64,000 bases of DNA from an uncultured Enterobacteriaceae bacterium (GCA_964495015.1 CAZBUD010000016.1:3491-67490); one strand, 5' to 3'; shown: positions 22,945-63,344, numbered from the stretch's first letter. The notes: a model not told the origin generated them from the letters alone. A program made the numbers and translations.

Positions 22945-24159
22945 ATGATCGACCTCTCCCCTCCCTCGCATGTTGAGAAGACAGTTCGTGACATTCACCG
23001 ATTCATAGAAAACGATCTCTCACCCATTGAGCAGGATCTTTCTCAACACCTTATCAATGAACACCTCTATCTGCGCCAAGACGGACGCCTTGCGCCCGAG
23101 GTGTTGGCCGCCCAGCAGACGATTCGGAAACGGTCGGCGGAGAAGGGTTTGTATGCTCTCCACATGCCCAAAGAAGTCGGCGGTGGCGGTCTGAGCCTGA
23201 CTGATATGTTCTTTGTCCACGAGGCTGTCTACCAGCATGGCATAGGGGTAACGCAATGGATGCTGTCGTGGACGGAGGGACCAAACCAGATGCTGATGGT
23301 TCTCAACGAGGAGCAGAAGCAAAAATACCTCCTGCCGATGATGCGGGGTGAAACGACCGGCGCTTACGCCATCACTGAGTATCGAGGCGGTTCTGACGTG
23401 CTCGGTATGCAGACCCAAGCGGAAAAGCGTGGCGATGCTTGGGTGATTAACGGCACGAAGGCTTATATCACAAATGCCCAGTATGCAGACTTGGTTTTCG
23501 TGTGCGCCATGCACGATCCGAGCAAAGGCGGTGCAGGAGCAACCGCCTTTATTGTGGAGCGAGACAATCCCGGGCTCGAGATCGGGCGAACCTACCGAAC
23601 CATTATGGATGACGGAATGACTGGCGAGTTACGGTTTGAGAATTGCCACGTACCACAGGAAAACATGTGGGGGCAGGAGGGTGAAGGCTTTTACCTCAGC
23701 ATGGGCATGATCAACTGGATTCGCGTGCGCCGCGGGGGCATGTGCACCGGCCTGGGGCAATATTTGCTGGATCGGTGTATCGATTATATTAAAAACCGGC
23801 GTGCGTTTGGTGGCGCACTCAGCCGTTTTCAAGCCCTGCAGTGGATGGTTGTGGATTCTTACCTGGATGTCCAAGCCATGCGCAGTATGTCGCTTCAAAG
23901 TCTCTGGCAGGCCGACCAGGGAAACCTGTGGGCGTTCAAGGTCGATCCTCAACTCATCAAGGCCGTGTGTGCGCTCAAGGTCTTTTGCGATGAAGCGCTG
24001 TATCGCGTAGCCGACCGAGCGGTGCAGCTCCACGGTGCCCATGGACTCATGAAGGAATCCGGAATTGAAAAAATATTTCGGATTGCCCGCAATCTGCGTA
24101 TCCCTGGGGGAACGGATGAGATCCAGCGGGTGAATATTGCCAAGGCTCTCGGATTGTAA
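22945..24159 (+). CDS. Acyl-CoA dehydrogenase family protein
   Basis: 404 aa. YAITEYRGGSDVLGMQTQAEKRGDAWVINGTKAYITNA, plus a C-terminal four-helix region with the catalytic-base region (ARNLRIPGGTDEIQR). Confidence 0.8.
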   Translation: MIDLSPPSHVEKTVRDIHRFIENDLSPIEQDLSQHLINEHLYLRQDGRLAPEVLAAQQTIRKRSAEKGLYALHMPKEVGGGGLSLTDMFFVHEAVYQHGIGVTQWMLSWTEGPNQMLMVLNEEQKQKYLLPMMRGETTGAYAITEYRGGSDVLGMQTQAEKRGDAWVINGTKAYITNAQYADLVFVCAMHDPSKGGAGATAFIVERDNPGLEIGRTYRTIMDDGMTGELRFENCHVPQENMWGQEGEGFYLSMGMINWIRVRRGGMCTGLGQYLLDRCIDYIKNRRAFGGALSRFQALQWMVVDSYLDVQAMRSMSLQSLWQADQGNLWAFKVDPQLIKAVCALKVFCDEALYRVADRAVQLHGAHGLMKESGIEKIFRIARNLRIPGGTDEIQRVNIAKALGL

Positions 24160-24195
24160 CGTGTCCACGCTCTTCCCTCTGCCTCTTGCTGTCCC

Positions 24196-25524
24196 TTGAC
24201 CAACCTTTTCCCCCCCGGATACTGCAAGGCAGTGAGGGCTATCGAATCTGTCAATACTGAGTCTCGTACCGAGACCGCTAATCAGCAGAAATTCTTTTAT
24301 GGCTGGGTGGTAGTTGCCTGTTCGTTTATCGTCCTGACGGCTGCATATGGTGTTCAGTTTTCCTTTGGCGTGTTCATGCCGGAGATATCGGCTGAAATGG
24401 GCTGGGGACGGACGGAACTCTCTTTAGCCTATGCGTTCTACGTTTTCGTCTATAGCGGCCTTGGAATTGTAAGCGGCTGGTGTACCGACCGTTGGGGGCC
24501 GCGCATTGTAATTTTGGTTGGCGGTCTCCTGCTGGGGAGTGGTACTATGCTGATGAGCCAAGTGCACGCGCTCAGCCAACTATACGTATTCCTTGGTTGT
24601 ATCGCTGCTCTTGGCATGAGCGCTGCCTTTGTGCCGTGCAACTCTACAGTGGTGCGCTGGTTTATTGAGCAGCGTGGTCTTGCGCTCAGTATCAGTACGA
24701 GTGGGTCAAGTTTTGGAAACTTTCTTGTTCCACCACTCACAGCAGCTCTGATTACGGCCTATGGCTGGCGGGTGACGTATCTGATGATTGGGCTCATTAG
24801 CATGGCCATCATCGTATTGTGTTCACTATTTATTATCCGCGATCCTGAGACGGCTGGACTACAACCGGACGGGACTGTGCCGGTTGAACCAGTTCCGCGA
24901 TCAGAATCCCAGGCTCAGGTGAGTACGGCTGACGAATGGACGCTGGCAACAGCTCGGCAGACCTCGGCCTTCTGGATGCTGGTCGTGATCTTTACCATGA
25001 CGTGGTTAGTCGTCTTCATGCCGGTGATCCATATTGTTCCATTCGCGATGGACCTCGGTGTTCCGCAAGTCCGCGCGTCCACGCTCATTAGTGTTATCGG
25101 TCTGGCTGGATTTGGCGGACGACTCTTAATGGGACCGATTTCCGACCGCCTGGGTCGTATTCCAGCATTAAAAGTATGCCTGCTGCTGCAAACCCTGGCC
25201 TTTCTCGGGTTTTCGTTTAGCACCAGCCTGTCTCTGCTCTATCCGGCCGTAGCCGTCTTTGGTGTCTCTTACGGCGGGACGACTGCGCTCTTCCCGGCCA
25301 TCGTTGGGGACTTTTTCGGACGCGTCGCAGTTGGGTCCATTGTCGGGTTTATTTTTGCCGTGGCTGGCTCAACTGCCGCTTTCGGGCCGGCTGTTGCTGG
25401 GTATCTATACGACGTCTACGGAAACTATGAGATAGCGTTTTTATTAAGTTCGGGGTTGAATTTTCTTGGAGTCATGTTGTTATTTTTCATGAAAAGGCCA
25501 AAACGGTTGCCACATGCAACGTAG
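24196..25524 (+). CDS. MFS transporter (OFA-like; paralog of the 2267-3568 gene)
   Basis: 442 aa, about 12 TM segments. GWCTDRWGPR motif. Central hydrophilic loop. Confidence 0.8.
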   Translation: MTNLFPPGYCKAVRAIESVNTESRTETANQQKFFYGWVVVACSFIVLTAAYGVQFSFGVFMPEISAEMGWGRTELSLAYAFYVFVYSGLGIVSGWCTDRWGPRIVILVGGLLLGSGTMLMSQVHALSQLYVFLGCIAALGMSAAFVPCNSTVVRWFIEQRGLALSISTSGSSFGNFLVPPLTAALITAYGWRVTYLMIGLISMAIIVLCSLFIIRDPETAGLQPDGTVPVEPVPRSESQAQVSTADEWTLATARQTSAFWMLVVIFTMTWLVVFMPVIHIVPFAMDLGVPQVRASTLISVIGLAGFGGRLLMGPISDRLGRIPALKVCLLLQTLAFLGFSFSTSLSLLYPAVAVFGVSYGGTTALFPAIVGDFFGRVAVGSIVGFIFAVAGSTAAFGPAVAGYLYDVYGNYEIAFLLSSGLNFLGVMLLFFMKRPKRLPHAT

Positions 25525-25533
25525 GAGGGGAGT

Positions 25534-26337
25534 ATGCAGCGTGCATCGGTAAATGGAGTTGAATTAGTGTATGAAACCTACGGAGCGGGTGAACCGCTTG
25601 TTCTTGTCCACGGTGCGCAAAGTGATCGGAGTATCTTTATCAATCTACTCCCGGATTTTACGGATCAATTTGAGGTCCTGATCTTTGATCAACGCGGCTC
25701 AGGTCAAAGCGAAAAACCCGACGTGGAATACACTATGGGCATGATTGCCGATGACACTGCCGCGCTGATGGACTACGTGGGCTTCCCTCCTGCGCATGTG
25801 TATGGGGTCTCAATGGGGGGGATGATCGCCCAAGAGCTGGCCATTCGCCATGCCTCGCACGTCCAATCCCTCGTCCTTGGCTGCACGACTCCTGGAGGGC
25901 CTCAAGCAGTCAGCCTGCAAGGCGAGGCCATACAGAGTTCGCACTCAACTGAGGAACTCTCTGCAGAAGAACGTGGTAAGGCATTGGCTGAAACCGCTTT
26001 TACCGAGGGCTATATTCAAAAGCACCCAGAGATTATCTCGACATTGGTCGAAGCTCGCAAAAAGCAGCCGCTTGACACTGTTGGTTTTTCTCACCGAATG
26101 CAAGCAGCTTACATGCATAATACCTTTGACCGTTTGTCACAGATTACTTGTCCGACACTTGTGATTACGGGTAAAGACGATGCGCTGATTGCGTGGGAGA
26201 ACTCAAAACTCCTGGCAAAAAATATTGCCAATTCCGAACTTGTGGTCTTAGAGCCGGCCGGCCATGTTTTTTGGGTGGAACAGCCAACACGGTCGAGAAA
26301 TGCGATTTTGACATTTCTACAGAAACACAAGAGGTAA
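25534..26337 (+). CDS. Alpha/beta-fold hydrolase
   Basis: HG oxyanion motif (LVLVHGAQSD). Nucleophile elbow GVSMGG. C-terminal GHVFWVEQP histidine. Confidence 0.8.
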   Translation: MQRASVNGVELVYETYGAGEPLVLVHGAQSDRSIFINLLPDFTDQFEVLIFDQRGSGQSEKPDVEYTMGMIADDTAALMDYVGFPPAHVYGVSMGGMIAQELAIRHASHVQSLVLGCTTPGGPQAVSLQGEAIQSSHSTEELSAEERGKALAETAFTEGYIQKHPEIISTLVEARKKQPLDTVGFSHRMQAAYMHNTFDRLSQITCPTLVITGKDDALIAWENSKLLAKNIANSELVVLEPAGHVFWVEQPTRSRNAILTFLQKHKR

Positions 26338-26346
26338 GGGTCAACT

Positions 26347-27378
26347 ATGCAAAACAAAGAAATCACCAAAAATAGTCAAGTACGTATGATGCGGAGTTGG
26401 ATGCTCGGCCTGCATGCCACGCATATTACCGATATTGGTGGGCGGCTCGGCTATTTCACTGAGATGCGTCGGCGCGGTGGAACAGCCTCGGCTGAAGGGC
26501 TTGCCCAAGCTCTGGAACTCGATCCCTGGCGGACAAGGGTCTGGTGCCAGGCGGCGTGTGCGGTCGGGGTGCTGCAATCTGACGGTGATACGCAGTTCAC
26601 CTTTGCTCCGTTTATGGACGAACTCCTGGGCGATAATTCGCCTGAACTCCTCACGACCCATGTCCTGGCAAGCCTGTCACGAGACTTTCCCGCCTATCCG
26701 GAGGCCTTTCGGACCGGCGCGCTGAAAACCTTTCATGACCATGACGAAGATTTCTTCCACCATCAAGGCAAAATATCAGCTTTGCGCGCGCCTGTCGTAG
26801 TTGCTGCAGCCCGCAAACTGTCCGGTATGGAAGACCGATTGAGTACCGGGGGTAAAGTCATGGACATCGGTTCCGGCAGCGGAACAGTCCTCGTCCGCTT
26901 TGCCGAAGAGTTTCCGACCTGCCAAGTCACCGGCATCGAGCCGTTGCCATATTTTGTGGAGACCTCTCAAAAACTGATTCAAGACAAAAGGCTGGGCAGC
27001 AGGGTGCGGGTTGAGTCGGTCGGCGGGGAAGAACTGCCTTTTGAGAACGAGTTTGATCTTGTTACTATGGTTCAGGTCTTCCACGAGCTGCCGGATGAAA
27101 AGAAAATAGATATCTTGATTCGGTGCCACCGTAGTCTCAAGCCGGACGGAGTATTGCTCGTTGTTGATCGGTGTGCGCCTGAGACTGGGGAAGATTTGCA
27201 TGACCGACGCTTCACCATGAGTATTCTGGAGCAGTGGTTTGAAGTGACCTGGGGTAATATCGTTAACACTCGAGGTGATATTATTCAAATGTTAAAAGAC
27301 ACGGGGTTGAGCGTGACTGATGAGAACTCGGATATCATCCCGACGTATTGGACGTTTGTGGCGGAGAAGACTGCTTAA
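26347..27378 (+). CDS. Class I SAM-dependent (O-)methyltransferase with an N-terminal winged-helix/dimerisation domain
   Basis: Motif I VMDIGSGSGTV and an acidic motif II (TGIE), then LVTMVQVFHELPD and LKPDGVLLVVD. Starts 9 nt after the hydrolase stop. Confidence 0.75.
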   Translation: MQNKEITKNSQVRMMRSWMLGLHATHITDIGGRLGYFTEMRRRGGTASAEGLAQALELDPWRTRVWCQAACAVGVLQSDGDTQFTFAPFMDELLGDNSPELLTTHVLASLSRDFPAYPEAFRTGALKTFHDHDEDFFHHQGKISALRAPVVVAAARKLSGMEDRLSTGGKVMDIGSGSGTVLVRFAEEFPTCQVTGIEPLPYFVETSQKLIQDKRLGSRVRVESVGGEELPFENEFDLVTMVQVFHELPDEKKIDILIRCHRSLKPDGVLLVVDRCAPETGEDLHDRRFTMSILEQWFEVTWGNIVNTRGDIIQMLKDTGLSVTDENSDIIPTYWTFVAEKTA

Positions 27379-27402
27379 GAGGAGTCGGAACGGAGTAGCA
27401 AT

Positions 27403-28392
27403 ATGGGTCGATTAGGGCTCGTCCTTTACCATGGCATTGAAAGTGGTCCAGAACTCAAACAGTACGGACAGATTGCAGAAGACGCGGGTTATGAGTCGCT
27501 GTGGGTGACGGAGCGCTATTTCCACGAAGAGATTTTTTCCCTGCTTGGCTATCTTGGTGCTGCTACAGAAAAGATCAAACTCGGTGTTGGCGTCACTAAC
27601 CCCTACACGCGGAATCCCGCGCTCTTAGCCATGGCAACGGCAACACTAGATCGGATCACGGGCGGACGCTTTTTGCTGGGGCTTGGACGAAGCGAACGCA
27701 GTGTTATCCAAGACAAGATGGGCATGCCCTACGGCAATTCCCAGGCAGCGATGAACGCTGCGGTCTCGCTCGTCAAACGTCTTTTATCTGGTGAACGGGT
27801 AACCGACACCGAAGGGCCTTTTACACTGCGCAAGGCATGCCTTGCTACAAAGCCGATTCAACAAAACCTGCCCATCTATCTTGCCGCAATTGGAGAAAAA
27901 GGGCTGCGTCTGGCTGGAGCGATTGCCGATGGCATCTTGCTCAATGCCTACGTTCCGCCGTCCTACGTCAAATACGCAGTTGAAGAGATTCGCAGCGCAG
28001 CCCAAGAGGCTGGGCGTAATCCACAGTCTATCGATATTGCCTGCATGCTCGTCATTCGATTGACCGATGACCCGCACAGCATGATGCCAACCCTCAAAAA
28101 GCGTATTGTCCGGCTGCTCGACGAAGCCTTTGTGGGAGAGATTCTGCTGAAAAAAGGCGGCTTTGATCCGTCCATTCTTGGGCCCTTACGGGAGTCTTAT
28201 GCAAAGGATGAAGGTAAAGAGGCCGTAGGACTCATCACGGATGAAATGGTCGAGTCTTTTTACCTCGTCGGCTCAGCAGAGAAATGCAAAGAAGGTATAG
28301 CCGAATATCGACAGGCGGGTGTGGACCTCCCGCTGCTCCTACCTCGCCTTGAGGATTATAAGCGTGTCGCGGAAGAGCTGAAAGATGCGTAA
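27403..28392 (+). CDS. LLM-class F420/flavin-dependent oxidoreductase (Mer/luciferase-like)
   Basis: 329 aa. ESLWVTERYFHEE, RFLLGLGRSE and the C-terminal GLITDEMVESFYLVGSAEKCKEGIAEYRQAGVDLPLLLP are typical of the family. Confidence 0.8.
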   Translation: MGRLGLVLYHGIESGPELKQYGQIAEDAGYESLWVTERYFHEEIFSLLGYLGAATEKIKLGVGVTNPYTRNPALLAMATATLDRITGGRFLLGLGRSERSVIQDKMGMPYGNSQAAMNAAVSLVKRLLSGERVTDTEGPFTLRKACLATKPIQQNLPIYLAAIGEKGLRLAGAIADGILLNAYVPPSYVKYAVEEIRSAAQEAGRNPQSIDIACMLVIRLTDDPHSMMPTLKKRIVRLLDEAFVGEILLKKGGFDPSILGPLRESYAKDEGKEAVGLITDEMVESFYLVGSAEKCKEGIAEYRQAGVDLPLLLPRLEDYKRVAEELKDA

Positions 28393-28788
28393 CGTTTCAG
28401 CCTAGAACGCAAAGGCCTTCTTATTGGGCAGCCTCGTTCAGACGGGTAACGCGGTAATAAATCAAAACCGGCCCCACGGTCTTCGATAATAGCAGTTGAG
28501 ACAAGCGGGCCTTTTATCCGAATGGGGTTAAAGGCGCAAAAGGGGACTTTGCTTTCCGGCTGAGTATGCCAAGGGCAACAAATTCATCAAGGTGAGCCTC
28601 TTCTCCGTTAGTTTTTCGCTGCTCCTGCTGCATTTGTGGTCATTATGACTATACGAAAAGCTGTTGTCAAAGCTATTATTATTTTCAAGCGAATATTCCC
28701 CTACCCGAGTAGCCGCATGTTTAGCTGTTCTATATAAACAGTCCCCTATGGCGAATATTCATTCATCTCATACGAGGAAGGAGCTCCC

Positions 28789-29823
28789 ATGAAACTTGCA
28801 ATCGGTGTTGGCTATTCCGGCGGGCGGGTTGAACTGCCCATGGATATGATCCTTGAGGCGGAAAAGCTAGGTTATGACTCGGTCTGGAGCGCGGAGGCGT
28901 ATGGCTCGGATGCTGTGACGCCGTTGGCCTACTTAGCCGCGAAAACCTCACGGATCAAACTTGGCACCGGCATTATGCAAATCCCGGCTCGTACGCCGGC
29001 CATGTGTGCTATGACCATGTCGACTCTGGATGCGCTCTCGAATGGCCGCGTGCTGGTAGGTCTTGGTATGTCCGGTCCGCAGGTGATCGAGGGCTGGCAC
29101 GGCATGTCGTACAGCAAAGCCGCCGCGCGTATTCGTGAATATGTGGAGATCATGCACAAGATTTGGGACCGTCAAGAGCCAGTTGCGTTTGATGGCAAGG
29201 TGTATCAACTGCCCTACCAAGGCGAAGATGCGAGTGGACTCGGTAAACCGCTCAAGTCGATCCTGCACTCACGGCGTCTACCGGTCTATCTGGCGACCAT
29301 GAAGCCGCTCAGTATCCGTATTACGGCCGAACTCGCCGACGGCTGGTTGCCGATTTGGTTTTCACCCTACCGTATGAGTATGTTTGCCCATGATTTGGAA
29401 AAGGGCTTTCAGCGTGCAGCAAATGGTAAGTCTTTGGACAATTTCGACGTGGTAGCTGGATGTACGGTTGTCATCGGAGACGATGTGAGGTTCTGCCTCG
29501 CCCAACTCAAGCCGACCTTGGCTCTCTACGTCGGCGGCATGGGTGCCAGAGGCAAGAATTTCCACAATGAAATGGTCTCGAAGTACGGCTACGCTGATGT
29601 GGCGGCTGAGATACAGGATCTCTATCTGTCGGGCCGTAAGAAAGAGGCCACTGCGCTGGTCCCGGATGAGCTGTGTGACGAAATCTCCTTGTGTGGCCCA
29701 CCAGCTCGGATTCGCGAACGCTTCAAAGCTTGGGAATACGCCGGCGTTTCAACCATGATGGTCCAGTCGAGGCAGCCTGAGGCGCTGGCCTTAATGGCGG
29801 ATGTAGCGGGAACGAATCAGTAG
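28789..29823 (+). CDS. LLM-class F420/flavin-dependent oxidoreductase
   Basis: 344 aa. RBS GGAAGGAG upstream. DSVWSAEAYGSD, RVLVGLGMSGPQ, and a C-terminal ALVPDELCDEISLCGPPARIRERF. Confidence 0.8.
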   Translation: MKLAIGVGYSGGRVELPMDMILEAEKLGYDSVWSAEAYGSDAVTPLAYLAAKTSRIKLGTGIMQIPARTPAMCAMTMSTLDALSNGRVLVGLGMSGPQVIEGWHGMSYSKAAARIREYVEIMHKIWDRQEPVAFDGKVYQLPYQGEDASGLGKPLKSILHSRRLPVYLATMKPLSIRITAELADGWLPIWFSPYRMSMFAHDLEKGFQRAANGKSLDNFDVVAGCTVVIGDDVRFCLAQLKPTLALYVGGMGARGKNFHNEMVSKYGYADVAAEIQDLYLSGRKKEATALVPDELCDEISLCGPPARIRERFKAWEYAGVSTMMVQSRQPEALALMADVAGTNQ

Positions 29824-29854
29824 GCCAAGGAAGAGGGGATTTTTAGGAGAGAAA

Positions 29855-30742: not shown

Positions 30743-30779
30743 TCCGTTTAACCCATCTAGGTGCAATACGGAGGAATCC

Positions 30780-31568
30780 ATGTCCTATACGGCCATCCTG
30801 TTTGAAAAGAAGGACAATATCGCAAAGATCACGATCAACCGTCCGGAGGCGGCCAATGCGCTCAACTTCGACCTTGCATATGATCTCATGCATGCATCGC
30901 TCGAATGTGATGAGGACCCCGAAATCCGGGCGGTTGTGATGACAGGAAGCGGGCGGATGTTTTGTGCTGGAGGCGACCTGAAGAGTTTTTCTGCACAAGG
31001 GGAGAAACTGCCAGCCCACATGAAAGAAGTGACCACGTATCTGCATGGCGCTATCTCGCGTTTCGCGCGTATGGACCCGCCGCTGATCGGAGCGGTGAAT
31101 GGAACAGCTGCGGGCGCAGGCCTGAGTATTGCCTGTTCGTGTGATATTGTCTTGGCTGCCGAATCGGCTAAATTCACTATGGCCTACACCCGCATTGGAC
31201 TTACCCCGGATGGCTCGTCGACCTATTTTCTGCCGCGCATTGTGGGTATGAAACGGGCGTTAGAGTTGACCATTACCAATCGGGTCCTTTCAGCCCAGGA
31301 AGCTGCAGAGTGGGGCCTCGTTAATCGGGTCGTACCGGATGCGGGCCTACTCGCTGAAGCCGAGAAGCTTGCTGGTGAGCTGGCGCCTGGGCCGACTGGT
31401 GCGTTTGGTGGAGCCAAGCGGCTGCTGCATAGTGGCTGGACGGAAACGCTTGAAACCCAGATGGAAAACGAAACCCAGTCGATTGCCGCACGGTCCAAGA
31501 CCGAGGACGGGAGAGAAGGCATTACTGCCTTCTTAGAGAAACGCGCCGCCAAATTTAATGGGAAATAG
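30780..31568 (+). CDS. Enoyl-CoA hydratase/isomerase (crotonase family)
   Basis: Internal ATG preceded by GGAGGA. ITINRPEAANAL, MTGSGRMFCAGGDLK and GAVNGTAAGAGLSIACSCDI. The longer upstream ORF overlaps dhaA. Confidence 0.85.
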   Translation: MSYTAILFEKKDNIAKITINRPEAANALNFDLAYDLMHASLECDEDPEIRAVVMTGSGRMFCAGGDLKSFSAQGEKLPAHMKEVTTYLHGAISRFARMDPPLIGAVNGTAAGAGLSIACSCDIVLAAESAKFTMAYTRIGLTPDGSSTYFLPRIVGMKRALELTITNRVLSAQEAAEWGLVNRVVPDAGLLAEAEKLAGELAPGPTGAFGGAKRLLHSGWTETLETQMENETQSIAARSKTEDGREGITAFLEKRAAKFNGK

Positions 31569-31654
31569 ATTGTAAGGGCGAATCATTCACCTCCGTCGGG
31601 AGGAAAGAGCGTTCGACGCAAAGACCAGAATGCCTCGCCCCTGGAGATCACGCT

Positions 31655-32644
31655 ATGGTTCAACCATATCGCCTCTTTGGTGTGGAATTGTCGCCCTACT
31701 CACTAAAGGTTCGGGCGTATTTTCGGTATAAGGACATCCCGCACGAATGGATTGCACGCGATTCGACCAATCAGGCAGAGTTCGAGCTCTGGGCCAAACT
31801 GCCTCTTGTACCGCTTGTAGTGACGCCAGATGGGGTGGGGATGCAAGACTCCACGCCCATCATGGATTATTTTGAAAAGCTCCAACCGGAACCGTCCATA
31901 CATCCTAGCGACCCGGCCCTGGCGTTCCTCTCTGCGCTCATCGAAGAGTATGGTGATGAGTGGGGCAACAAGCAGATGTTCCACTACCGTTGGAGGTACG
32001 AGCCGGACCAAAAGTCGACCGCCGAGCGTATTGTGCGTCTGACGAGACCGGGACTCAGCGAAGAAGAATATCAAAAGGCAGCCAAGCAGATCCGGGAGCG
32101 TATGGTGCTCCGGCTGTCGTTTGTGGGTTCGTCAGAACATACGCGGGAACATATAGAGTCCTCGTTGGATCGTCTTTTGTCGATTCTCGAACAACACCTT
32201 AGGCAACGCATGTATCTGTTTGGGGGCAAGCCAATGTTTGGTGATTTCGGCCTGGCCGCTCAGCTCCATCAGTGTTCGACCGACCCCTCAGCTGGAACGA
32301 TGATACGGGCAGTTGCGCCAAATGTGTTGTCCTGGACACAGCAGATGTTGGACCCCAAAGATGAGGGCGAGCTGGAGACGTGGGATGATCTTGCTCCAAC
32401 CTTGATGCCGCTACTGAAAGAAATCGGTCAAACTTTTTTGCCGTGGTCAGTGATCAACGCCAAAGCCTTGGCCGCTGGTGAGAAAAAATGTTCTGTTATG
32501 CTGCGTGGCAAGGAATATGCCCAAGGCACGCAGAAATACCATGCCCGGTCTCTTGGCGTGCTGCGTGAACGATACAAAGTTGCGGAGAAAGCGGCCTTAG
32601 ACCCGATTTTGGAAGGTGCTGGCTGCCTGCAGTGGTTGCCGTAA
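31655..32644 (+). CDS. Glutathione S-transferase-family protein (long form)
   Basis: N-terminal thioredoxin-like LFGVELSPYSLKVRAYF ... LPLVPLVVTPDG ... DSTPIMDYF, plus an alpha-helical C-terminal domain. 329 aa. Confidence 0.65.
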   Translation: MVQPYRLFGVELSPYSLKVRAYFRYKDIPHEWIARDSTNQAEFELWAKLPLVPLVVTPDGVGMQDSTPIMDYFEKLQPEPSIHPSDPALAFLSALIEEYGDEWGNKQMFHYRWRYEPDQKSTAERIVRLTRPGLSEEEYQKAAKQIRERMVLRLSFVGSSEHTREHIESSLDRLLSILEQHLRQRMYLFGGKPMFGDFGLAAQLHQCSTDPSAGTMIRAVAPNVLSWTQQMLDPKDEGELETWDDLAPTLMPLLKEIGQTFLPWSVINAKALAAGEKKCSVMLRGKEYAQGTQKYHARSLGVLRERYKVAEKAALDPILEGAGCLQWLP

Positions 32645-32696
32645 TCATATCGTCGGGTAAGAGAAAAATCTGGAAAAATCTGAAGGAGAAGCAGGC

Positions 32697-33842
32697 ATGT
32701 ATGGCTTTGAATTGACCCCGGAGCAAAAACAACTAAAAGAAACCGTTCATAAGTTTGCGATTGAGGAAATTATTCCCGTTGCAGCCCAGTACGACAAAGA
32801 AGAACAATTTCCTGATGAAATCTGTCGCAAAGCTTGGGAGCTGGGCATCCTGAATCCGCTTATTCCTACAGCCCAAGGCGGCCTTGGACTTGAGGTGTTT
32901 GATACCTGCCTTGTTGACGAAGAGCTCGTGTACGGTTGTGCTGGTGTTGCGCTCAATATGGTGGCCAATAATCTGGCTACGACTCCGCTCCTCGTTGCTG
33001 CGGACGACGAACAGAAAAAGGAGTATTTAGGGCAGCTGGTTTCCGAGCCGGTGTATGCCGCCTTTGCATTGACTGAGCCGGGCGCAGGCTCTGATGCTGC
33101 TGCCATTTCCACGACCTATAGAAAAGTTGGAGACGATTTCGTCCTGAATGGCACTAAGCACTTTATTACAAATGGATCAGTCGCCCAGTGGTATGTGACG
33201 TTTGCGACTGAAGATAAGACTCAGCGGCATGGCGCTGTATCGTGTTTTGTACTGCCTGCCGCCACGCCGGGCATTACCGCCAACCGGATGCATAACAAAA
33301 TGGGTCAGCGTGCGTCGGATACGGCGGAGATCGTCTTTGAAGATGTCGTGGTACCGCGCAGGGGGCTTGTTGGTGCCGAGGGCGAGGGCTTTAAGATCGC
33401 CATGCGCACTTTTGACCGTAGCCGTCCTGAGGTTGGTGCGTTTGCCATTGGGATTTCGCAGCGGGCGCTCGATGAATCCGTCAAATATGCACAACAACGT
33501 GAAGCGTTCGGCCAGGCTATCGCGAATTTTCAGGCTATACAGTTCATGCTGGCTGATATGGCAATTGAGCTGGAGGCTATGCGGCTGCTGACCTATAAAG
33601 CTGCTTGGTTGCTGGACCACGGCGCATCGTCTTCTATTGTATCGAGTTACGCCAAAGCGTTCGGCGCAGATCGGACCATGCAGATCACGACCAACGCCGT
33701 CCAAATTTTTGGCGGGTATGGCTATTTTAGCGAGTATCCGGTCGAGAAGCTCATGCGCGATGCGAAACTGCTCCAGATTTATGAAGGCACGTCGCAGATC
33801 CAGCGGGTTGTCATTGCCAAACATTTATTAAAAGGGGCATAA
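32697..33842 (+). CDS. Acyl-CoA dehydrogenase
   Basis: 381 aa. AFALTEPGAGSDAAAI, NGTKHFITNG, and a C-terminal YEGTSQIQRVVIAKHLL. Confidence 0.85.
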   Translation: MYGFELTPEQKQLKETVHKFAIEEIIPVAAQYDKEEQFPDEICRKAWELGILNPLIPTAQGGLGLEVFDTCLVDEELVYGCAGVALNMVANNLATTPLLVAADDEQKKEYLGQLVSEPVYAAFALTEPGAGSDAAAISTTYRKVGDDFVLNGTKHFITNGSVAQWYVTFATEDKTQRHGAVSCFVLPAATPGITANRMHNKMGQRASDTAEIVFEDVVVPRRGLVGAEGEGFKIAMRTFDRSRPEVGAFAIGISQRALDESVKYAQQREAFGQAIANFQAIQFMLADMAIELEAMRLLTYKAAWLLDHGASSSIVSSYAKAFGADRTMQITTNAVQIFGGYGYFSEYPVEKLMRDAKLLQIYEGTSQIQRVVIAKHLLKGA

Positions 33843-33878
33843 GGGAATTCTCTATACAAACTGAAAAGGAGCAAGGAC

Positions 33879-34535
33879 ATGGCAGAAGAACTCGGTGTAT
33901 TTGAAACGATGCACTCTATGCGGGCTATGCGACGGCTCAAGTCCGATCCGGTGCCGATTGAGATGATCCGTAAGATTATTGATGCGGGAATACGTGCGCC
34001 CAGCGGGCAGAATCTCCAGGCTTGGGCTTTTGTCGTTCTCCAGGAGGCGGACAACAAGAAGTTTTTCCAAGAACGCTACCATAAAGCTATGGTTGATCGC
34101 TTTGGTGATCGGCTCAAACCAACGGAGGATGACAAATCATCCTTTGCCAAGACCGCTCGGGCTGCGATACATCTGGCCGAACACATGCATGAAGCTCCGG
34201 TCTTACTTCTCATCTGCGGGAAACGGGATTGGCCGTTTGCTATACCTCCGGAAAAACGCGAAGGAAAAGCTCCGCCCTCATATGGTTCGCTTTATCCCTG
34301 CGTACAAAATATTCTGCTCTCCTGTCGGGCGCTCGGTCTTGGTGCCAGCCTGACGACCATGCACCAGATGTTTGAGGATGAGCTCCAAGAACGTCTGGGT
34401 ATTCCGCTCGAATATGGTGTAGTTGCGACCATCCCAATCGGCCACCCTACGGGAAAGTTTGGGCCGGTCAAACGCCATCCCGCTCCTGAGGTGACGCATT
34501 TTGATAGATGGGGACAGCACGAACCGAAAGCGTAG
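33879..34535 (+). CDS. Nitroreductase-family protein
   Basis: MRRLKSDPVPIEMIRKIIDAGIRAPSGQNLQAWAFVV and the later LLSCRALGLGASLTTMH are nitroreductase-fold motifs. Confidence 0.75.
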   Translation: MAEELGVFETMHSMRAMRRLKSDPVPIEMIRKIIDAGIRAPSGQNLQAWAFVVLQEADNKKFFQERYHKAMVDRFGDRLKPTEDDKSSFAKTARAAIHLAEHMHEAPVLLLICGKRDWPFAIPPEKREGKAPPSYGSLYPCVQNILLSCRALGLGASLTTMHQMFEDELQERLGIPLEYGVVATIPIGHPTGKFGPVKRHPAPEVTHFDRWGQHEPKA

Positions 34536-34653
34536 CGACCACTAGTAGTAACAGCCTCTTCGTAAGGGGACGGTCTGCCGTGCCCTTACCTTTTTGTGGA
34601 AGGAATCCCGCTAGGAAACATGTCATGTTTCTCGCCGCCCGTCCGCACGATGA

Positions 34654-35250
34654 AATGGTCGCATGGGAAAAAAGTACGGATCCGCAGGTTTTGAATCGTT
34701 GTGGTAAGCGGAGATGACCATCTCGGCGCGCATGCAGCTGGCTGCGATTGTTCCCAGAGTCGGTACTATCCAGATCGGTCCATACGCCGCCCTGACGGGT
34801 GAGCTCGGGAACGGCCTGATTGGTAACCCTATTTTCTCTCCCCAGCATGTGCGGGACCATATCTTATCTGCGCTGAAAATAGGACTCGACAAACGTGGGC
34901 GCAGTCGATCTGATCCTGAAGTCTTGGGCCAGCGTTTTGCTATCATTGATGACGATCTGACAGCTGCCTACCGTATTGGCGCAGACGCCATGATGTTTAG
35001 CATCTGGGCGCGCATTTATTATGATGATATCTTTGCCGCCGATGGATTTTCATAGACAGTTGAACAGGTCCGCTCCATGTAGCGCATTCCAGACACAGAC
35101 AAGGCCGTTGAGCTGATTTCCTATGAGATGGTTGATGCCTTTTGTGCAGTCGGGCGGATTGATCGGGTCCGGGCCAAAATCAATGAACGCGAAGGACTGC
35201 TTGATACCAGCATTCTCGCTGTCCCGAATACAGGCACGACGCAAGAGTAG
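34654..35250 (+). pseudogene. Decayed LLM-family oxidoreductase gene (C-terminal two-thirds only, with in-frame TGA, TAA and two TAG codons)
   Basis: A single + frame reads NGRMGKKYGSAGFESLW*AEMTISARMQLAAIVPRVGTIQIGPYAALTGELGNGLIGNPIFSPQHVRDHILSALKIGLDKRGRSRSDPEV ... AADGFS*TVEQVRSM*RIPDTDKAVELISYEMVDAFCAVGRIDRVRAKINEREGLLDTSILAVP. This is colinear with the intact LLM at 27403 (LPIYLAAIGEKGLRLAGAIADGILLNAYVPPSYVKYAVEEIRSAAQEAGRNPQS ... GLITDEMVESFYLVGSAEKCKEGIAEYRQAGVDLPLLLP). No N-terminal half is present. Confidence 0.45.
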
Positions 35251-35411
35251 CGCGATTATTGTCGGGATAAAACTTTGGATGCGTTTACGGACTAGAAAAG
35301 GCTGCACCCGTTCTGAATTCCCCTCTTGGCCGGGGAGCCGCCTTGTGTCAGTGACACGTAGCGCCAGGGTGGGTCCTATCTCTAGATTCACAAGGCAAGG
35401 AGCGCCGACAC

Positions 35412-36167
35412 ATGAGTAGGAATGAGAAGGTCGCTATCGTAACAGGCGCAGGCACTGGAATTGGTAAATGCAGTGCGCTCGCCCTCTTGCAAGAGGGCTA
35501 TGCCGTGGCTTTAGCTGGCCGCCGTGTAGCGCTATTAGAAGCAACGGCGAAAGCGGCTGGGACAGATGCAAAGACTCTTGTCGTCCCGACTGATGTAAGC
35601 GATCCTGACTCTATTCGTGCCTTGTTTGCCAAAACGAAAGAGACCTTTGGCCGACTCGACGTATTGTTCAACAATGCCGGCATTGGCGCACCGCCTGTGC
35701 CTCTGGAAGATCTATTATATGATCAATGGAAAGCCGTTGTGGACATCAACCTGACCGGTGCTTTTGTGTGTACGCAAGAAGCATTCAAGATCATGAAAAA
35801 CCAAGATCCACGTGGCGGTCGTATCATCAACAACGGTTCCATCTCGGCCCACGTCCCGCGTCCCAACTCCGCGCCGTATACGGCAACGAAGCACGCCATG
35901 ACTGGCCTGACCAAGTCGACGTCACTTGATGGGCGTCAATACGATATTGCCTGTGGCCAAATTGACATCGGAAACGCCGGGACAGAAATGACAGCAGTCA
36001 TGAAAAAAGGTGTCCCTCAGCCTCATGGGTCCGTTGAGGTAGAGCCGACATTTGACGTGAATCATGTAGCGCAAGCCGTTGTGTATATGGCAAACTTGCC
36101 GCTTGATGCGAATGTACAATTCATAACGATCATGGCGACCAAGATGCCGTTTATTGGGCGAGGGTAA
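35412..36167 (+). CDS. SDR-family short-chain dehydrogenase/reductase
   Basis: TGAGTGIG cofactor motif, NNAG, and the catalytic YTATKHA (YxxxK). Confidence 0.85.
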
Positions 36168-36172
36168 CAAAG

Positions 36173-36361
36173 ATGAATCCAGAACCGCTTGGCATCGGTA
36201 CTTCAACGGTCGAGGTTGCTAATATATCTAGGTATGGGATATGGATCATCGTCGGTGACCGAGAACTGTCTATGCCGTACGAGAATTTTCCATGGTTCAG
36301 AGATGCGGCCATTAGCAAGATGGTTAATACAGAAGAGCCAACACCAGCGCGCGTCTACTGA
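36173..36361 (+). CDS. Small DUF2442-like protein
   Basis: 62 aa. EVANISRYGIWIIVGDRELSMPYENFPWFRDAAISKMVN resembles the DUF2442 pattern. Lies 5 nt after the SDR stop. Confidence 0.35.
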   Translation: MNPEPLGIGTSTVEVANISRYGIWIIVGDRELSMPYENFPWFRDAAISKMVNTEEPTPARVY

Positions 36362-36415
36362 CCTCCCGCAAGTACTTGACTCTACTCCTGGATTTGGGCA
36401 TCACAAAACAATCAC

Positions 36416-37735
36416 GTGGTATCCCGTTGGCGTCGGACGCTTAGTCTTGCCCTGCCTGTCATGGGCGGGATGATTTCCCAAAACATTATGAATCTAGTGG
36501 ACACGGCTATGCTGGGTTCGCTAGGGGATGGTGCCTTGGCAGCGGCGGGCCTCGCTCAGTTTACCACCTTCACTAGCGCGGCATTTATTATCGGTCTTGC
36601 AACCGGGGTGCAGGCAACGTCTGCGCGTTGGCTCGGAGCCGGGCGAACGAGTGAAATTGCCGTGCCCCTGAACGGCGGACTCCTGCTTGTTTTGCTGCTC
36701 GGGCTGCCCCTTTCCGTGACGTTGATTGTGTTCGCTCCAGATTTCTTCCCTCTCCTTACTCACGATGCAGATGTGGCCTCTCAGGGAACCGTCTACCTCC
36801 AGGCTCGACTTGTTGGTTTGATTGCCATGGGTACGAACTTTGTCTTTCGTGGGTACTGGAACGCCGTTAATTTGTCCAAGATCTATATGCGTACGATCAT
36901 TGTGATGAATGTGACGAACATCTTCCTCAACTGGGTGCTGATCTTCGGCAATCTGGGTTCACCACGCCTTGGGGTGGTAGGTGCAGGGATAGGAACAACA
37001 GCGGCCCTCTATATTGGATCAATCGCGTATCTGATGAGCGCTTTTCACTGTGCTCGGGAGGGTGGTTTTCTGGCGTGTTGGCCAGACTGGGCGACGCTCG
37101 TCGCCTTGCTGCGTCTGTCTATTCCGGCAGGTGTTCAGCACGTATTCTTTGCCGCTGGTATGACCGCGTTCTTTTGGATTCTTGGCAATATAGGGACAGC
37201 GGAACTCGCCGCCGGGCATGTGTTATCCAATCTCCTCCTGCTCTGGCTGTTGCTATCGAATGCGTTCGGACTGACTGCTGCATCATTTGTCGGACAGGCG
37301 CTCGGAGCGGGAGATGCGGAAGCTGCTCGTTCGTGGGCATGGTATGTGGCGCGCGTGGCAGTCCTGGTCGTTGGCGCGCTTGCGCTGCCGGCACTCCTCA
37401 TACCCGACTTTTTCCTCATGCTTTTCTTGCATGACCCTGCAACGCTTGCGCTCGCCCGGATACCACTGCAAATCACTGCAGCAACGATGGCGTTTGAGGC
37501 CCTTGGCGTTGTACTGCTGAACGCCCACTACGGGGCAGGACACAGTCGGCGTGTGATGGTGATCTCTCTCTGCATGCAGTGGTGTTTCTTCTTGCCCATC
37601 GCCTTTGGCATGCAATCACTATGGAGCTTTGGTTTGCTCTCCATTTGGATAGCTAATGTGACCTACCGTATCCTCCAATCGGCCACATTCGTTTGGAGTT
37701 GGCAGACTGGAAGCTGGGCTCGAGTAAAGGTCTGA
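36416..37735 (+). CDS. MATE-family multidrug/toxin efflux transporter
   Basis: 439 aa, 12 TM segments with the two-repeat MATE architecture. N-terminal LALPVMGGMISQNIMNLVDTAMLG. Confidence 0.8.
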   Translation: MVSRWRRTLSLALPVMGGMISQNIMNLVDTAMLGSLGDGALAAAGLAQFTTFTSAAFIIGLATGVQATSARWLGAGRTSEIAVPLNGGLLLVLLLGLPLSVTLIVFAPDFFPLLTHDADVASQGTVYLQARLVGLIAMGTNFVFRGYWNAVNLSKIYMRTIIVMNVTNIFLNWVLIFGNLGSPRLGVVGAGIGTTAALYIGSIAYLMSAFHCAREGGFLACWPDWATLVALLRLSIPAGVQHVFFAAGMTAFFWILGNIGTAELAAGHVLSNLLLLWLLLSNAFGLTAASFVGQALGAGDAEAARSWAWYVARVAVLVVGALALPALLIPDFFLMLFLHDPATLALARIPLQITAATMAFEALGVVLLNAHYGAGHSRRVMVISLCMQWCFFLPIAFGMQSLWSFGLLSIWIANVTYRILQSATFVWSWQTGSWARVKV

Positions 37736-38448
37736 TGGCTGTAGCAGAAGAATTTTCTTTCTAGCCTTGTTTTGCGACTCTTTTCCTTCGTAAAATGGTT
37801 AATTTATAACAGCCTCGCGGCCGAAGCGGGGCAAACGGTTTCCGACCTCGTTGCAACGGCCGCATCCGGTTTCTCCCCCCACCCTCCAACAACGCTATGT
37901 TGATCCGATACGGCCACTGAGCGTACACTTTGTACCAATCGATGCCTGGCTTGCTGAACACAAACCGGATGTGTGGCAACACCTTCACTAATCGGACGAT
38001 GAACTCCTACATTTGTGTCAAATTGGAGTTGTAGAAAGCCGCTATCGAGCTGAGCTTGGGCATTCGTTGTCGTATGTGAAGAAGTCGAGTGACTCTATTA
38101 CGAGGCGCATCCGTCTGAGTTGATCCTCTTCCCTTTGGCACCGGATGAACGCGTTGCCGTCTATTACGAGCTGAGTGACGGTTCTATGCACAAGGTCAGT
38201 GGCGACGACGAGTAGGAGTTCTCAGTCGTATCGCGACTGGCGGGACTGTATCGAAAAAAAGAAAATCTTCCCATCCCTTAGTTTCAAGGAAGCGATGCCT
38301 TGTCCCTGGGCATTGCTTCCGTCTTCCTGCAGGTCAGATTCACTAGATTCGCAAGAGTAAAAGAATACGTTACAGTAGCGCGACCCTTTTGTGGCGAGAC
38401 AGCGTGGTCTACGCAATGCCCGTCTCCCAGAAAGGGGAAGGGGGGATA

Positions 38449-63313: not shown

Positions 63314-63344
63314 AAGATGGCCTTTCCAGCAATGCTTGCCGTAC

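Follow-up and report, generated by a model that had tools for sequence, protein, structure and literature searches.

The 15-kb block downstream of groEL (positions 22945-37735) in the 64,000-nucleotide stretch of DNA analysed here (the window) is a genuine, vertically inherited run of enzyme genes from an uncultured marine Binatia bacterium (Binatota, bin18-like). In the reading we prefer, to which we give an even chance, it is an ordinary Binatia neighbourhood, composite around an old module of a haloalkane dehalogenase (HLD), luciferase-like oxidoreductases (LLM) and a crotonase-fold enzyme (ECH) in the order (LLM1)-LLM2-HLD-ECH, in which substrate would pass from HLD to F420-class LLM to CoA-enzyme.

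All 15 features named in the initial annotation lie where it had placed them, in the same order and on the + strand after the groEL terminator. With their neighbours they are:

22812-22835, +, groEL intrinsic terminator (read directly from the sequence)
22945-24159, +, ACAD1, acyl-CoA dehydrogenase fold (three Pfam ACAD domains)
24196/24232-25524, +, MFS1, oxalate/formate-lactate (OFA/MCT) type transporter (Pfam MFS_1)
25534-26337, +, alpha/beta hydrolase, distantly PcaD-like (131 bits vs. cut-off 256)
26347-27378, +, DnrK/TnmJ-type small-molecule O-methyltransferase, class I SAM (Pfam Methyltransf_25/_2)
27403-28392, +, LLM1, Mer-like F420-class luciferase-like oxidoreductase (NCBIfam Mer models, PDB)
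28464..28670, -, Phd/YefM-PIN toxin-antitoxin remnant (tblastn; intact pair in relative L010)
28704..28747, +, conserved non-coding element 5' of LLM2 (comparison of 20 relatives)
28789-29823, +, LLM2, putative F420-dependent LLM oxidoreductase, Rv3520c family; opens the conserved core (TIGR03559)
29855-30742, +, haloalkane dehalogenase, HLD-II, LinB/DmbA/DhaA type (NF002938, PDB, motifs)
30780-31568 (30780 is the true start), +, PaaG-like crotonase-fold enzyme (ECH), isomerase type (PDB, motifs)
31655-32644, +, GST-like protein, 329 aa (Pfam GST_N_3 and GST_C_2)
32697-33842, +, ACAD2, canonical acyl-CoA dehydrogenase (catalytic Glu in 'IYEGTS')
33879-34535, +, nitroreductase-superfamily flavoprotein (Pfam PF00881)
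34616-35289, +, LLM3, decayed LLM pseudogene (tblastn with the intact orthologue)
35412-36167, +, SDR oxidoreductase (profile match)
36173-36361, +, DUF2442 small ORF, 62 aa (25.5 bits vs. cut-off 23.9)
36416-37735, +, MATE efflux transporter (TIGR00797, 233 bits vs. cut-off 147)
37809..38209, +, pseudogene of a conserved 133-aa protein (tblastn; intact in L010, 18555-18956)
38389..39729, +, MFS2, anion:cation symporter type, extends the block's synteny (profile match, synteny)

The terminator, a 7-bp stem with a GGAC loop and a T6 tract (GGGGGTC-GGAC-GGCCCCC-TTTTTT) 3' of the groEL stop codon, was not listed by the consensus scan and was seen on direct reading. Spacers had been given as 5-50 bp; most are short (5-86 bp), but two gaps are long, one of 396 bp between LLM1 and LLM2, which carries the toxin-antitoxin remnant, and one of 876 bp between nitroreductase and SDR, which carries the LLM pseudogene. 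Co-direction is not specific to the block: genes on this strand continue without interruption from 19887 (PBP, groEL) to 42696 (MFS2, UvrD), which, with the positive GC skew, fits leading-strand bias.

Vertical inheritance of the block

The genes are not scattered or unlinked in relatives: about 20 species-level Binatia genomes, many of them from sponge metagenomes, share the order PBP-GroEL-ACAD1-...-MATE-MFS2. The initial annotation had called the block an island and proposed comparing its composition with that of flanking genes. GC (0.51-0.54 throughout), GC3 and codon usage (pooled RSCU, block vs. housekeeping genes, r = 0.90) match the flanking housekeeping genes, and the synteny takes in PBP and groEL. 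The annotated ORFs at the boundaries include no integrase or transposase, and no tRNA flanks the block (tRNAs lie at 7864 and 12081). Horizontal acquisition as a genomic island would accord with the close HLD homologues (about 73% identity) in MAGs of Dehalococcoidia and Methylomirabilota, which suggest that, given enough time, HLD genes pass from phylum to phylum. Against the indistinguishable composition, the plain boundaries and the identical chromosomal site beside groEL in about 20 species, however, this alternative is already refuted over the time scale spanned by the available relatives.

Relative to the sponge-metagenome genomes, dS reaches 1.05-2.4, at or close to saturation of synonymous sites, and every intact gene is under strong purifying selection (dN/dS = 0.02-0.18; 0.04-0.08 for LLM2). 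Recombination has swapped gene-sized segments independently within the block, and decay is also seen. The LLM3 pseudogene has lost about 100 codons and has 4 in-frame stops and 1 frameshift; its orthologue is intact in L010 (14735-15751, 338 aa; the tblastn query) and wholly deleted in L018 and L024. The pseudogene at 37809..38209 has 2 stops and 1 frameshift, and its 133-aa parent protein has no Pfam match. At the site of the DUF2442 ORF, relatives carry variable insertions of 1-3 kb. The loss of LLM3 and the insertions show that the genes of the block do not form a tight unit.

A core of LLM2, HLD and ECH in distant Binatia

The single 15-kb unit first proposed is interrupted by pseudogenes, by the toxin-antitoxin remnant and by insertions that vary between relatives; at a distance, only (LLM1)-LLM2-HLD-ECH persists. 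L054 has LLM2-HLD-ECH only, flanked by a T2SS ATPase on one side and a DNA methylase on the other; L025 has LLM2-HLD-ECH-ACAD2-NTR; L026 and L028 have LLM1-LLM2-HLD-ECH. In about 15 contigs from soil or freshwater metagenomes (LLM2 identity 69-77%), HLD lies directly downstream of LLM2, followed by ECH where the contig reaches, and LLM1 lies upstream in about 10 of them. Genes that repeatedly join the core encode a canonical GST, a PPOX/F420-like protein and a cyclase-STAND regulator. The GSTs of the marine block and the soil loci are non-orthologous, and homologues of the marine GST also occur in unrelated contexts. LLM2-HLD-ECH, often with LLM1 ahead, is the part kept on its own in more distant Binatia and is likely the functional unit.

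One element of the LLM1-LLM2 spacer points the same way. Lying 5' of LLM2, it reads TAGCCG-17-TATAAA (40-nt, promoter-like) and hardly varies among 20 relatives, even though the sequence upstream of it differs; the rest of the spacer is not conserved. The toxin-antitoxin remnant, the frameshifted C-terminal ~50 codons of the antitoxin, has an intact Phd/YefM-PIN counterpart in L010 (8035-8756) and itself carries a promoter-like site in the promoter scan (TTGACA-17-CATAAT, 28670->28642).

A less probable but still sizeable alternative is that the genes share no pathway at all, and that their order reflects descent and leading-strand co-orientation in a genome rich in promiscuous paralogues (cf. 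marine organic-matter oxidisers). Further LLM, ACAD, ECH, hydrolase and MFS genes are indeed dispersed among the window's housekeeping genes, LLM3 decayed with its neighbours unaffected, and gene-sized segments have been replaced independently. Moreover, PBP and groEL are as syntenic in close relatives as the enzyme genes, so selection may play no part in keeping the outer genes linked. The core speaks against this alternative, however: the LLM2-HLD-ECH adjacency survives between unrelated flanks (L054, L025, soil contigs), the promoter-like element is conserved, and a GST recurs 3' of ECH through non-orthologous genes.

In our preferred reading, no fewer than three units on the same strand (ACAD1 through LLM1, LLM2 through nitroreductase and SDR through MATE) would have grown around the older, Binatia-wide (LLM1)-LLM2-HLD-ECH module, to which other Binatia often add a GST or an F420-type PPOX. 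ACAD1, MFS1, the hydrolase, the methyltransferase, SDR and MATE would then be lineage-specific additions, tied to the core by synteny alone.

The dehalogenase and its LLM neighbours

The DhaA-type dehalogenase of the initial annotation holds up: judged by its sequence, the product is a genuine DhaA/LinB-type HLD-II with an intact catalytic pentad. It scores 443.8 bits against the NCBIfam NF002938 cut-off of 241, and its best PDB match, aligned over the full length, is 7pw1 (E 8e-124), the reconstructed ancestor AncLinB-DmbA (PMC8584953). The pentad (N40, D110, W111, E134, H274) is the Asn-Asp-Trp-Glu-His of LinB, DmbA and DhaA, and its motifs are kept in 96/97 homologues. The genomic setting, in contrast, is unlike that of these enzymes. 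The nearest loci (84-93% identity) are in Candidatus Binatia MAGs; the HLDs of about 52 loci outside it, at 57-73% identity, have heterogeneous neighbours.

The HLD pathways characterised so far employ alcohol dehydrogenases dependent on NAD or PQQ, together with aldehyde dehydrogenases. One haloalkane catabolic cluster, dhaR-dhaA-adhA-aldA of Rhodococcus, was reportedly described by Poelarends and colleagues in 2000 on plasmid pRTL1. There, as here, an HLD-II adjoins genes able in principle to oxidise its alcohol product. Unlike that cluster, the present locus has no regulator, NAD-dependent alcohol dehydrogenase or aldehyde dehydrogenase; around its HLD lie F420-class LLMs, a PaaG-like crotonase, a GST and an ACAD; and it is chromosomal, ancient and vertical, not on a plasmid and not flanked by IS elements.

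LLM1 and LLM2 match F420-class oxidoreductases, Mer-like and of the Rv3520c family, respectively. LLM2 scores 417.9 bits against a TIGR03559 cut-off of 335; we know of no Rv3520c family member with a known substrate. LLM1 scores 204 and 193 bits with the NCBIfam Mer models, under their cut-offs; among PDB structures it is closest to Mer (1z69, E 1e-46), with Adf, fHMAD and Fgd next. Since H4MPT-linked C1 oxidation is reported absent from Binatota (PMC8262859), LLM1 is not Mer itself. Comparable identity is seen in about 23 LLM2 homologues that lie in other contexts with no HLD, so LLM2-type enzymes are not tied to dehalogenases. The LLMs had been proposed as alkane or alkanesulfonate monooxygenases; we rejected this on the F420-class matches and on SsuD scores that reach just 30-60 bits where the cut-off is 518, and the matches listed for the LLMs include no LadA-type model.

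We propose that the cytoplasmic HLD-II hydrolyses the carbon-halogen bond of an organohalide, probably a natural one, to give an alcohol, and that the adjacent F420-class LLM dehydrogenases might then transfer hydride with that alcohol or a ketone as substrate. The second step is suggested by the closest solved relatives of the LLMs (Mer, Adf, fHMAD, Fgd), all of which are F420-dependent hydride-transfer enzymes. A dehalogenase gene, dhaA, has been reported in all Binatota genomes, and (halo)alkane degradation predicted from genome surveys (PMC8262859). In the literature that we searched, we found neither the conserved module nor any paper linking Binatia or Binatota to F420.

CoA enzymes and the GST-like protein

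The best PDB matches of ECH are E. coli PaaG (4fzw_C) and 6sl9/3hrx. ECH retains the catalytic Asp144 ('PD' motif) and lacks both hydratase Glu residues; these motifs are kept in 36 cluster ECHs. PaaG, the 1,2-epoxyphenylacetyl-CoA isomerase/enoyl-CoA isomerase of phenylacetate catabolism, has the same catalytic Asp, but ECH scores under the PaaG equivalog cut-off (227 vs. 345 bits) and no other paa genes lie nearby. ACAD1 has Gly ('RIPGGTDE') where ACAD2, ACAD3 and 5ol2_C ('IYEGTSE') have the catalytic Glu, and this Gly is invariant in 18 orthologues.

The GST-like protein has a Ser-type 'SPYS' N-terminus and a C-terminal extension. Its best family and fold matches are IsoI (NCBIfam, 47 bits vs. 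cut-off 300) and StyI (9qd3, TM 0.54/0.7, compared with an AF2 model of the GST-like protein at pLDDT 95), epoxide-opening GSTs of isoprene and styrene degradation. The likeness is weak, however (TM 0.54, 18% identity), the C-terminal extension is additional, and the block lacks a monooxygenase that could make an epoxide. In the proposed scheme, ECH and ACAD2 would act on a CoA-thioester, isomerising a double bond or an epoxide instead of hydrating it, and the GST might serve as a detoxifying step or open an epoxide or halide.

It had been suggested that the entire 15 kb forms one (halo)alkane or long-chain xenobiotic pathway, with LLM hydroxylation, HLD, SDR, beta-oxidation and export. We consider this improbable, although the HLD is genuine, the co-directional genes are linked in about 20 relatives and the Binatota surveys predict such chemistry. 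With F420-class LLMs, an ECH without hydratase Glu and an ACAD1 without catalytic Glu, the monooxygenase and beta-oxidation readings are weak. The absence of an obvious CoA ligase, already remarked upon, extends among the block's annotated genes to thiolase, 3-hydroxyacyl-CoA dehydrogenase and aldehyde dehydrogenase; the block also has no PQQ-dependent enzyme, leaving SDR as the sole NAD(P)-type candidate. Finally, MFS1, one of the supposed exporters, is of the carboxylate transporter type, the block is interrupted, and distant relatives keep the core only. What stands of the original interpretation is a real HLD-II, gene linkage and a wealth of paralogues; the island, the monooxygenases, beta-oxidation, MFS1 as exporter and the single unit do not.

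Outer genes and paralogues

MFS1 best matches SfMCT in NCBIfam (250 bits, under the cut-off of 320), an oxalate/formate-lactate carboxylate rather than drug-exporter type; its start may be 24232, and the gene call on relative L002 is 430 aa. The methyltransferase matches TnmJ, DnrK and MitM (PDB, E 1e-15 to 1e-10). The nitroreductase, which carries no subfamily assignment, has 4dn2 as its best PDB match and is weakly similar to BluB, FbiB-C and iodotyrosine deiodinase.

F420-dependent reductases occur in antibiotic and mycobacterial lipid biosynthesis, and a role in lipid or secondary-metabolite tailoring or export would draw together the O-methyltransferase, the base-less ACAD1, F420 reductases, SDR and MATE/MFS. 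The closest solved relatives of the methyltransferase are indeed natural-product O-methyltransferases, ACAD1 is non-canonical and a MATE exporter is present. We nevertheless judge this role very unlikely: the annotated ORFs of at least 150 aa in the 64-kb window include no PKS, NRPS, terpene synthase or other scaffold gene, the methyltransferase and MATE lie outside the deeply conserved core, and MFS1 belongs with uptake or antiport transporters.

Three paralogues noted elsewhere in the window were all confirmed, in keeping with a genome rich in ACAD, ECH and LLM paralogues:

50602-51858, third ACAD (ACAD3)
60699-61619, -, second crotonase
62249-63385, -, further LLM

Two paralogues had been overlooked, an LLM at 4621-5805 and an MFS transporter at 2267-3568.

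Layout of the enzyme block

An ORF listing combined with Pfam and NCBIfam scans confirmed every gene that the initial annotation had named in the block (22945-37735), in the order it had given and on the + strand: acyl-CoA dehydrogenase 1 (ACAD1), the transporter MFS1, an alpha/beta hydrolase, a methyltransferase, two luciferase-like oxidoreductases (LLM1, 27403-28392; LLM2, 28789-29823), a haloalkane dehalogenase (HLD, 29855-30742), a crotonase (ECH), a GST-like protein, a second acyl-CoA dehydrogenase (ACAD2), a nitroreductase, remnants of a third luciferase-like gene (LLM3), an SDR, DUF2442 and MATE. The close spacing that had been claimed (5-50 bp) held for most junctions, at 5-86 bp, but not for two, where gaps of 396 bp (LLM1 to LLM2) and 876 bp (nitroreductase to SDR) interrupt the series. 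The co-directional run itself is no special property of the enzyme genes; it spans 19887 (PBP, groEL) to 42696 (MFS2, UvrD) on the strand with positive GC skew. The features used below are listed here.

Features in and around the block
22812-22835, + strand: groEL terminator, a hairpin and T-run after the groEL stop codon
28464-28670, - strand: Phd/YefM antitoxin remnant, the frameshifted 3' third (~50 codons), in the 396-bp gap
28704-28747, upstream of LLM2: non-coding, promoter-like element of ~40 nt, reading TAGCCG-17-TATAAA
30780, + strand: true start of the crotonase gene
36173-36361, + strand: DUF2442 ORF
37809-38209, + strand, between MATE and MFS2: conserved 133-aa gene with no Pfam family, here a pseudogene with two stops and one frameshift

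We rejected a single operon, because the two long gaps hold a toxin-antitoxin remnant and a pseudogene, a conserved promoter-like element lies inside the block, and distant relatives link only (LLM1)-LLM2-HLD-ECH. Promoter and terminator scans gave counts no higher than those in shuffled controls, the sole informative site being a minus-strand one in the LLM1-LLM2 gap, and an Rfam search for structured RNAs returned two distant tRNAs and nothing else.

The block is inherited vertically and is a composite

The initial annotation had called these genes an island, a term that composition does not bear out. GC is flat along the window, GC3 of the block genes (0.50-0.64) resembles that of ribosomal, aminoacyl-tRNA synthetase and replication genes (0.48-0.59), and pooled codon usage (RSCU) of block and housekeeping genes is correlated at r = 0.90. 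At the borders we found no integrase and no adjoining tRNA. With normal composition, no mobility gene or tRNA at its borders and counterparts in relatives, a horizontally acquired genomic island was rejected.

The linkage of the genes, on the other hand, was borne out. A tblastn search with the window proteins against fetched loci, for which gene calls are crude greedy ORFs and taxon names are record titles, found the genes together rather than scattered in ~20 species-level relatives, in one order: PBP-GroEL-ACAD1-MFS1-hydrolase-methyltransferase-LLM1-LLM2-HLD-ECH-GST-ACAD2-nitroreductase-LLM3-SDR-(variable)-MATE-MFS2. Against relatives from sponge metagenomes dS was 1.05-2.4, so that synonymous sites are saturated or nearly so, and dN/dS was 0.02-0.18 for all intact block genes. 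Shared order, high dS and low dN/dS together indicate that the block is old, passed down vertically and under purifying selection. Its vertical inheritance and composite make-up, as opposed to an island origin, are thus well supported.

The nearest HLD loci (84-93% identical) in a one-genome-per-species scan lie in MAGs titled Candidatus Binatia, many of them complete chromosomes (those with the block include OY761159.2, OZ252051.1 and OZ242288.1), and the exact HLD protein is present on marine metagenome contigs, Station ALOHA samples among them. The marine lineage of the phylum, bin18, has been described as sponge-associated (PMC9999580).

Decay and allele exchange within the block

The sequence of the gap after LLM1 identifies it as what is left of a toxin-antitoxin pair. 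An intact Phd/YefM-PIN pair occupies the same spot in the relative L010 (8035-8756), and other relatives have either the intact pair or nothing; the strong promoter-like site TTGACA-17-CATAAT stays with the antitoxin remnant. LLM3 is a pseudogene from which ~100 codons have been deleted and which carries four stops and one frameshift; sponge relatives keep the gene intact, and two others (L018, L024) have lost it altogether. The 133-aa gene is likewise intact in L010 (18555-18956). The same lesions recur on L001, a contig assembled independently, and so are not assembly errors.

Nucleotide identity also drops locally. Against the relative L007 it falls from ~93% to ~75% across MFS1 and the hydrolase (window 24300-26100), and against L018 and L024 from ~91% to ~78% across HLD (29700-30800) and again across the nitroreductase (33900-34500), indicating that gene-sized alleles have been exchanged among lineages to give recombination mosaics.

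The dehalogenase belongs to subfamily HLD-II

HLD scored 443.8 bits against the NCBIfam HLD-II model NF002938 (cut-off 241) and gave full-length PDB alignments with 7pw1 (AncLinB-DmbA), LinB, DmbA and DhaA (E 1e-124 to 1e-81). Its pentad comprises an Asp nucleophile, a His base, a Glu acid after strand 6 and halide-stabilising Asn and Trp residues (N40, D110, W111, E134, H274; motifs HGNPT, HDWG, YMEA and SHF) and is conserved in 96 of 97 homologues. On this profile and these motifs the protein is a member of subfamily HLD-II, with predicted dehalogenating activity.

In a dhaA-type haloalkane catabolic cluster, a regulator and both alcohol and aldehyde dehydrogenases accompany the HLD. The block has the HLD but lacks the regulator and the aldehyde dehydrogenase, and we therefore rejected its membership in this type; within the block, only the LLMs and the SDR are candidates for alcohol oxidation. 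The observation in the initial annotation that the block has no CoA ligase or regulator was correct, and neither a thiolase nor an aldehyde dehydrogenase was found there.

A smaller core persists in distant Binatia

Among close relatives, linkage is a poor guide to function, as the flanking housekeeping genes are equally syntenic. More distant loci were informative. In L054 (HLD 72% identical), LLM2-HLD-ECH stands alone, flanked by genes for a type II secretion ATPase and a DNA methylase. The same trio is extended to LLM2-HLD-ECH-ACAD2-nitroreductase in L025, to LLM1-LLM2-HLD-ECH in L026 and L028, and to hydrolase-LLM2-HLD-ECH in L034. When metagenomes were scanned with LLM2, HLD lay directly 3' of LLM2 (69-77% identity) in ~15 soil and freshwater contigs, with ECH following wherever the contig was long enough and LLM1 5' of LLM2 in ~10 of them; two further contigs had LLM2-ECH without HLD. 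This linkage across distant genomes defines (LLM1)-LLM2-HLD-ECH as the conserved unit and the rest of the 15 kb as lineage-specific accretion. There is good support for a deep core made up of F420-type LLMs, an HLD-II enzyme and a PaaG-like enzyme. LLM2 itself was rejected as a marker of dehalogenase clusters, given that ~23 homologues (69-75% identity) sit in other contexts.

Twenty relatives share the ~40-nt element 5' of LLM2 almost unchanged, regardless of what precedes it and despite saturated synonymous sites, which suggests that LLM2 may begin a transcription unit of its own. An extra ~25 nt between the element and the ribosome-binding site is found in the window's clade and L010.

Three extras recur at the distant trio loci: a canonical 270-aa GST 3' of ECH, a PNPOx-fold gene, and a cyclase-AAA-TPR (STAND) regulator upstream. 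The GST was seen in the soil loci L028, L094, L096, L097 and L100. In L034, L054, L103, L143 and the metagenome contig P0109, the PNPOx-fold gene lies on the opposite strand close 3' of ECH (~3 kb in L054).

Outside the clade, HLDs (57-73% identity, ~52 loci, many phyla) have mixed neighbours. A universal HLD partner outside Binatia was rejected, since the ±1 positions of the ~52 loci held ECH in three cases, an SDR in five and an LLM, on the opposite strand, in two. The closest non-Binatia HLDs (73%), in two Dehalococcoidia MAGs (L027, 8896-9987; L029, 8922-9989), abut or overlap the gene upstream, which is a different conserved HLD partner; in L027 it is saccharopine-dehydrogenase-like.

The LLM enzymes resemble F420-dependent oxidoreductases

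LLM2 scored 417.9 bits (cut-off 335) against TIGR03559, the F420-dependent Rv3520c family, and F420 binding is predicted. For LLM1 the closest PDB entry was Mer (E 1e-46), with Adf, fHMAD and Fgd next; all of these are F420 enzymes. A true Mer was rejected: LLM1 scores below the Mer equivalog cut-offs, and Binatota have been reported to lack H4MPT-linked C1 oxidation (PMC8262859). LLM1, LLM3 and the LLM at 62249-63385 all matched F420-class models best, below cut-offs, and the LLM at 4621-5805 was ambiguous, its top match being an LLM-class monooxygenase family. Scores against the SsuD model TIGR03565 were 60 bits for LLM1 and 30 bits for LLM2 (cut-off 518), and no LadA-type model was among the matches listed in the LLM profile searches. 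The initial reading of these enzymes as alkane or alkanesulfonate monooxygenases was therefore abandoned; with the exception of 4621-5805, the LLMs of the window look like F420-dependent oxidoreductases rather than LadA or SsuD.

The PNPOx-fold gene of the distant loci best matched F420-dependent PPOX families, at 50-54 bits (cut-off 85), which makes it a second family that hints at F420 use. Among the annotated ORFs of at least 150 aa in the 64-kb window we found no F420 biosynthesis genes (fbiC or cofGH, cofC/D/E), and no link between F420 and Binatia was found in the searchable literature.

The remaining enzymes fit beta-oxidation poorly

The crotonase carries Ser and Tyr at the positions of the hydratase glutamates ('AGAGLSIA', 'MAYTRIG'), as do 36 cluster ECHs; we take these columns, set by a PaaG alignment plus the rat ECH motif, to be E144 and E164 of rat ECH. 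With both catalytic glutamates replaced, an enoyl-CoA hydratase was rejected. The protein is closest to PaaG, whose catalytic Asp (D144, 'PD' motif) is conserved, and scored 226.8 bits against the PaaG model TIGR02280 (cut-off 345). A crotonase-type dehalogenase was considered on account of 4-chlorobenzoyl-CoA dehalogenase (E 4e-44), but the match to PaaG is closer and similar scores are common among crotonases.

Three ACAD domains were found in each of ACAD1, ACAD2 and ACAD3 (50602-51858, elsewhere in the window). The catalytic Glu is kept in ACAD3 and in ACAD2, which is canonical. ACAD1 (22945-24159) has Gly at this position ('RIPGGTDE' vs 'IYEGTSE') in all 18 orthologues and also lacks Glu at the IVD-type alternative position. 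Since this Gly is invariant under strong purifying selection, ACAD1 probably catalyses chemistry other than dehydrogenation. A crotonase without hydratase glutamates, an ACAD1 without its catalytic Glu and the missing thiolase speak against beta-oxidation. MFS1 is of the oxalate/formate-lactate transporter type (NCBIfam), at odds with its description as an exporter, and the model of alkane monooxygenase, beta-oxidation and export is thus contradicted at several enzyme-level points.

The closest solved relatives of the methyltransferase are natural-product O-methyltransferases. The GST-like protein (31655-32644, 329 aa; model pLDDT 95) had the styrene-oxide GST StyI as its best, weak, fold match. 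It was rejected as a conserved pathway member: homologues in soil Binatia (62-64% identity) lie in unrelated neighbourhoods, and the GST of the soil trio loci is no orthologue of it; the two share 27% identity over an 85-residue N-terminal domain and the same position. The marine and soil proteins look like a non-orthologous replacement. For the nitroreductase, a role as deiodinase was rejected, since it resembles iodotyrosine deiodinase, BluB and FbiB too weakly to be assigned to any of them.

A possible role for the core

Few biocatalysts have been studied as closely as haloalkane dehalogenases, yet to our knowledge it is only for a few xenobiotic-degrading strains that we know what they act on in nature and which enzymes they work with. 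Binatia include dominant symbionts of sponges, animals in which brominated metabolites abound. The class-wide retention of HLD beside the same F420-type oxidoreductases and a PaaG-like CoA enzyme provides a concrete set of candidate partners.

Hydrolysis of a carbon-halogen bond by HLD would yield an alcohol. The putatively F420-dependent LLMs, if they act like Adf, fHMAD and Fgd, could then transfer hydride on this alcohol or on a ketone, after which a CoA-thioester intermediate would be isomerised rather than hydrated, perhaps with a GST assisting. This functional reading, which we infer by analogy, is weakened by the LLM2 homologues without HLD and by outer genes that are linked by synteny alone. 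We regard it as rather unlikely, though worth stating, that the (LLM1)-LLM2-HLD-PaaG-like module, with the GST and the F420-type PPOX, is an undescribed F420-using pathway of Binatia for natural organohalogens or related halohydrin or epoxide compounds. If so, its users would include pelagic bacteria as well as the abundant sponge symbionts to which they are related, HLD-II enzymes would gain a role in physiology and a class of natural substrates, and it would be the first evidence of F420-based metabolism in this phylum.

A published survey reports dhaA in every Binatota genome and predicts that these bacteria catabolise (halo)alkanes (PMC8262859). A dehalogenase in Binatota is thus known, and as a 15-kb 'pathway island' the block is ordinary. 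The module would be a dehalogenase-centred catabolic gene cluster, a known kind; the conserved module was not found in the searchable literature. The same survey counts Binatota LLM genes as ladA (PMC8262859), and published Binatota surveys take such luciferase-like 'ladA' genes as evidence for long-chain alkane oxidation; the LLMs of the window do not support that reading, which calls for caution in surveys.

Other features of the window and its relatives

The gene upstream of groEL (19887-22781 region) encodes a D-Ala-D-Ala carboxypeptidase, not groES. This pairing is kept in relatives, and the window's groEL is therefore probably a second chaperonin copy without groES. Three genes missing from the initial annotation lie amid housekeeping genes: an MFS gene (2267-3568), the LLM at 4621-5805 and an alpha/beta hydrolase (42741-43565). 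L007 (CAZXFE010000007.1), 91-95% identical in nucleotide sequence and fully syntenic with the window, is titled 'uncultured Enterobacteriaceae bacterium' and is evidently a mislabelled MAG; another relative, L011, carries the label Thermodesulfobacteriota.
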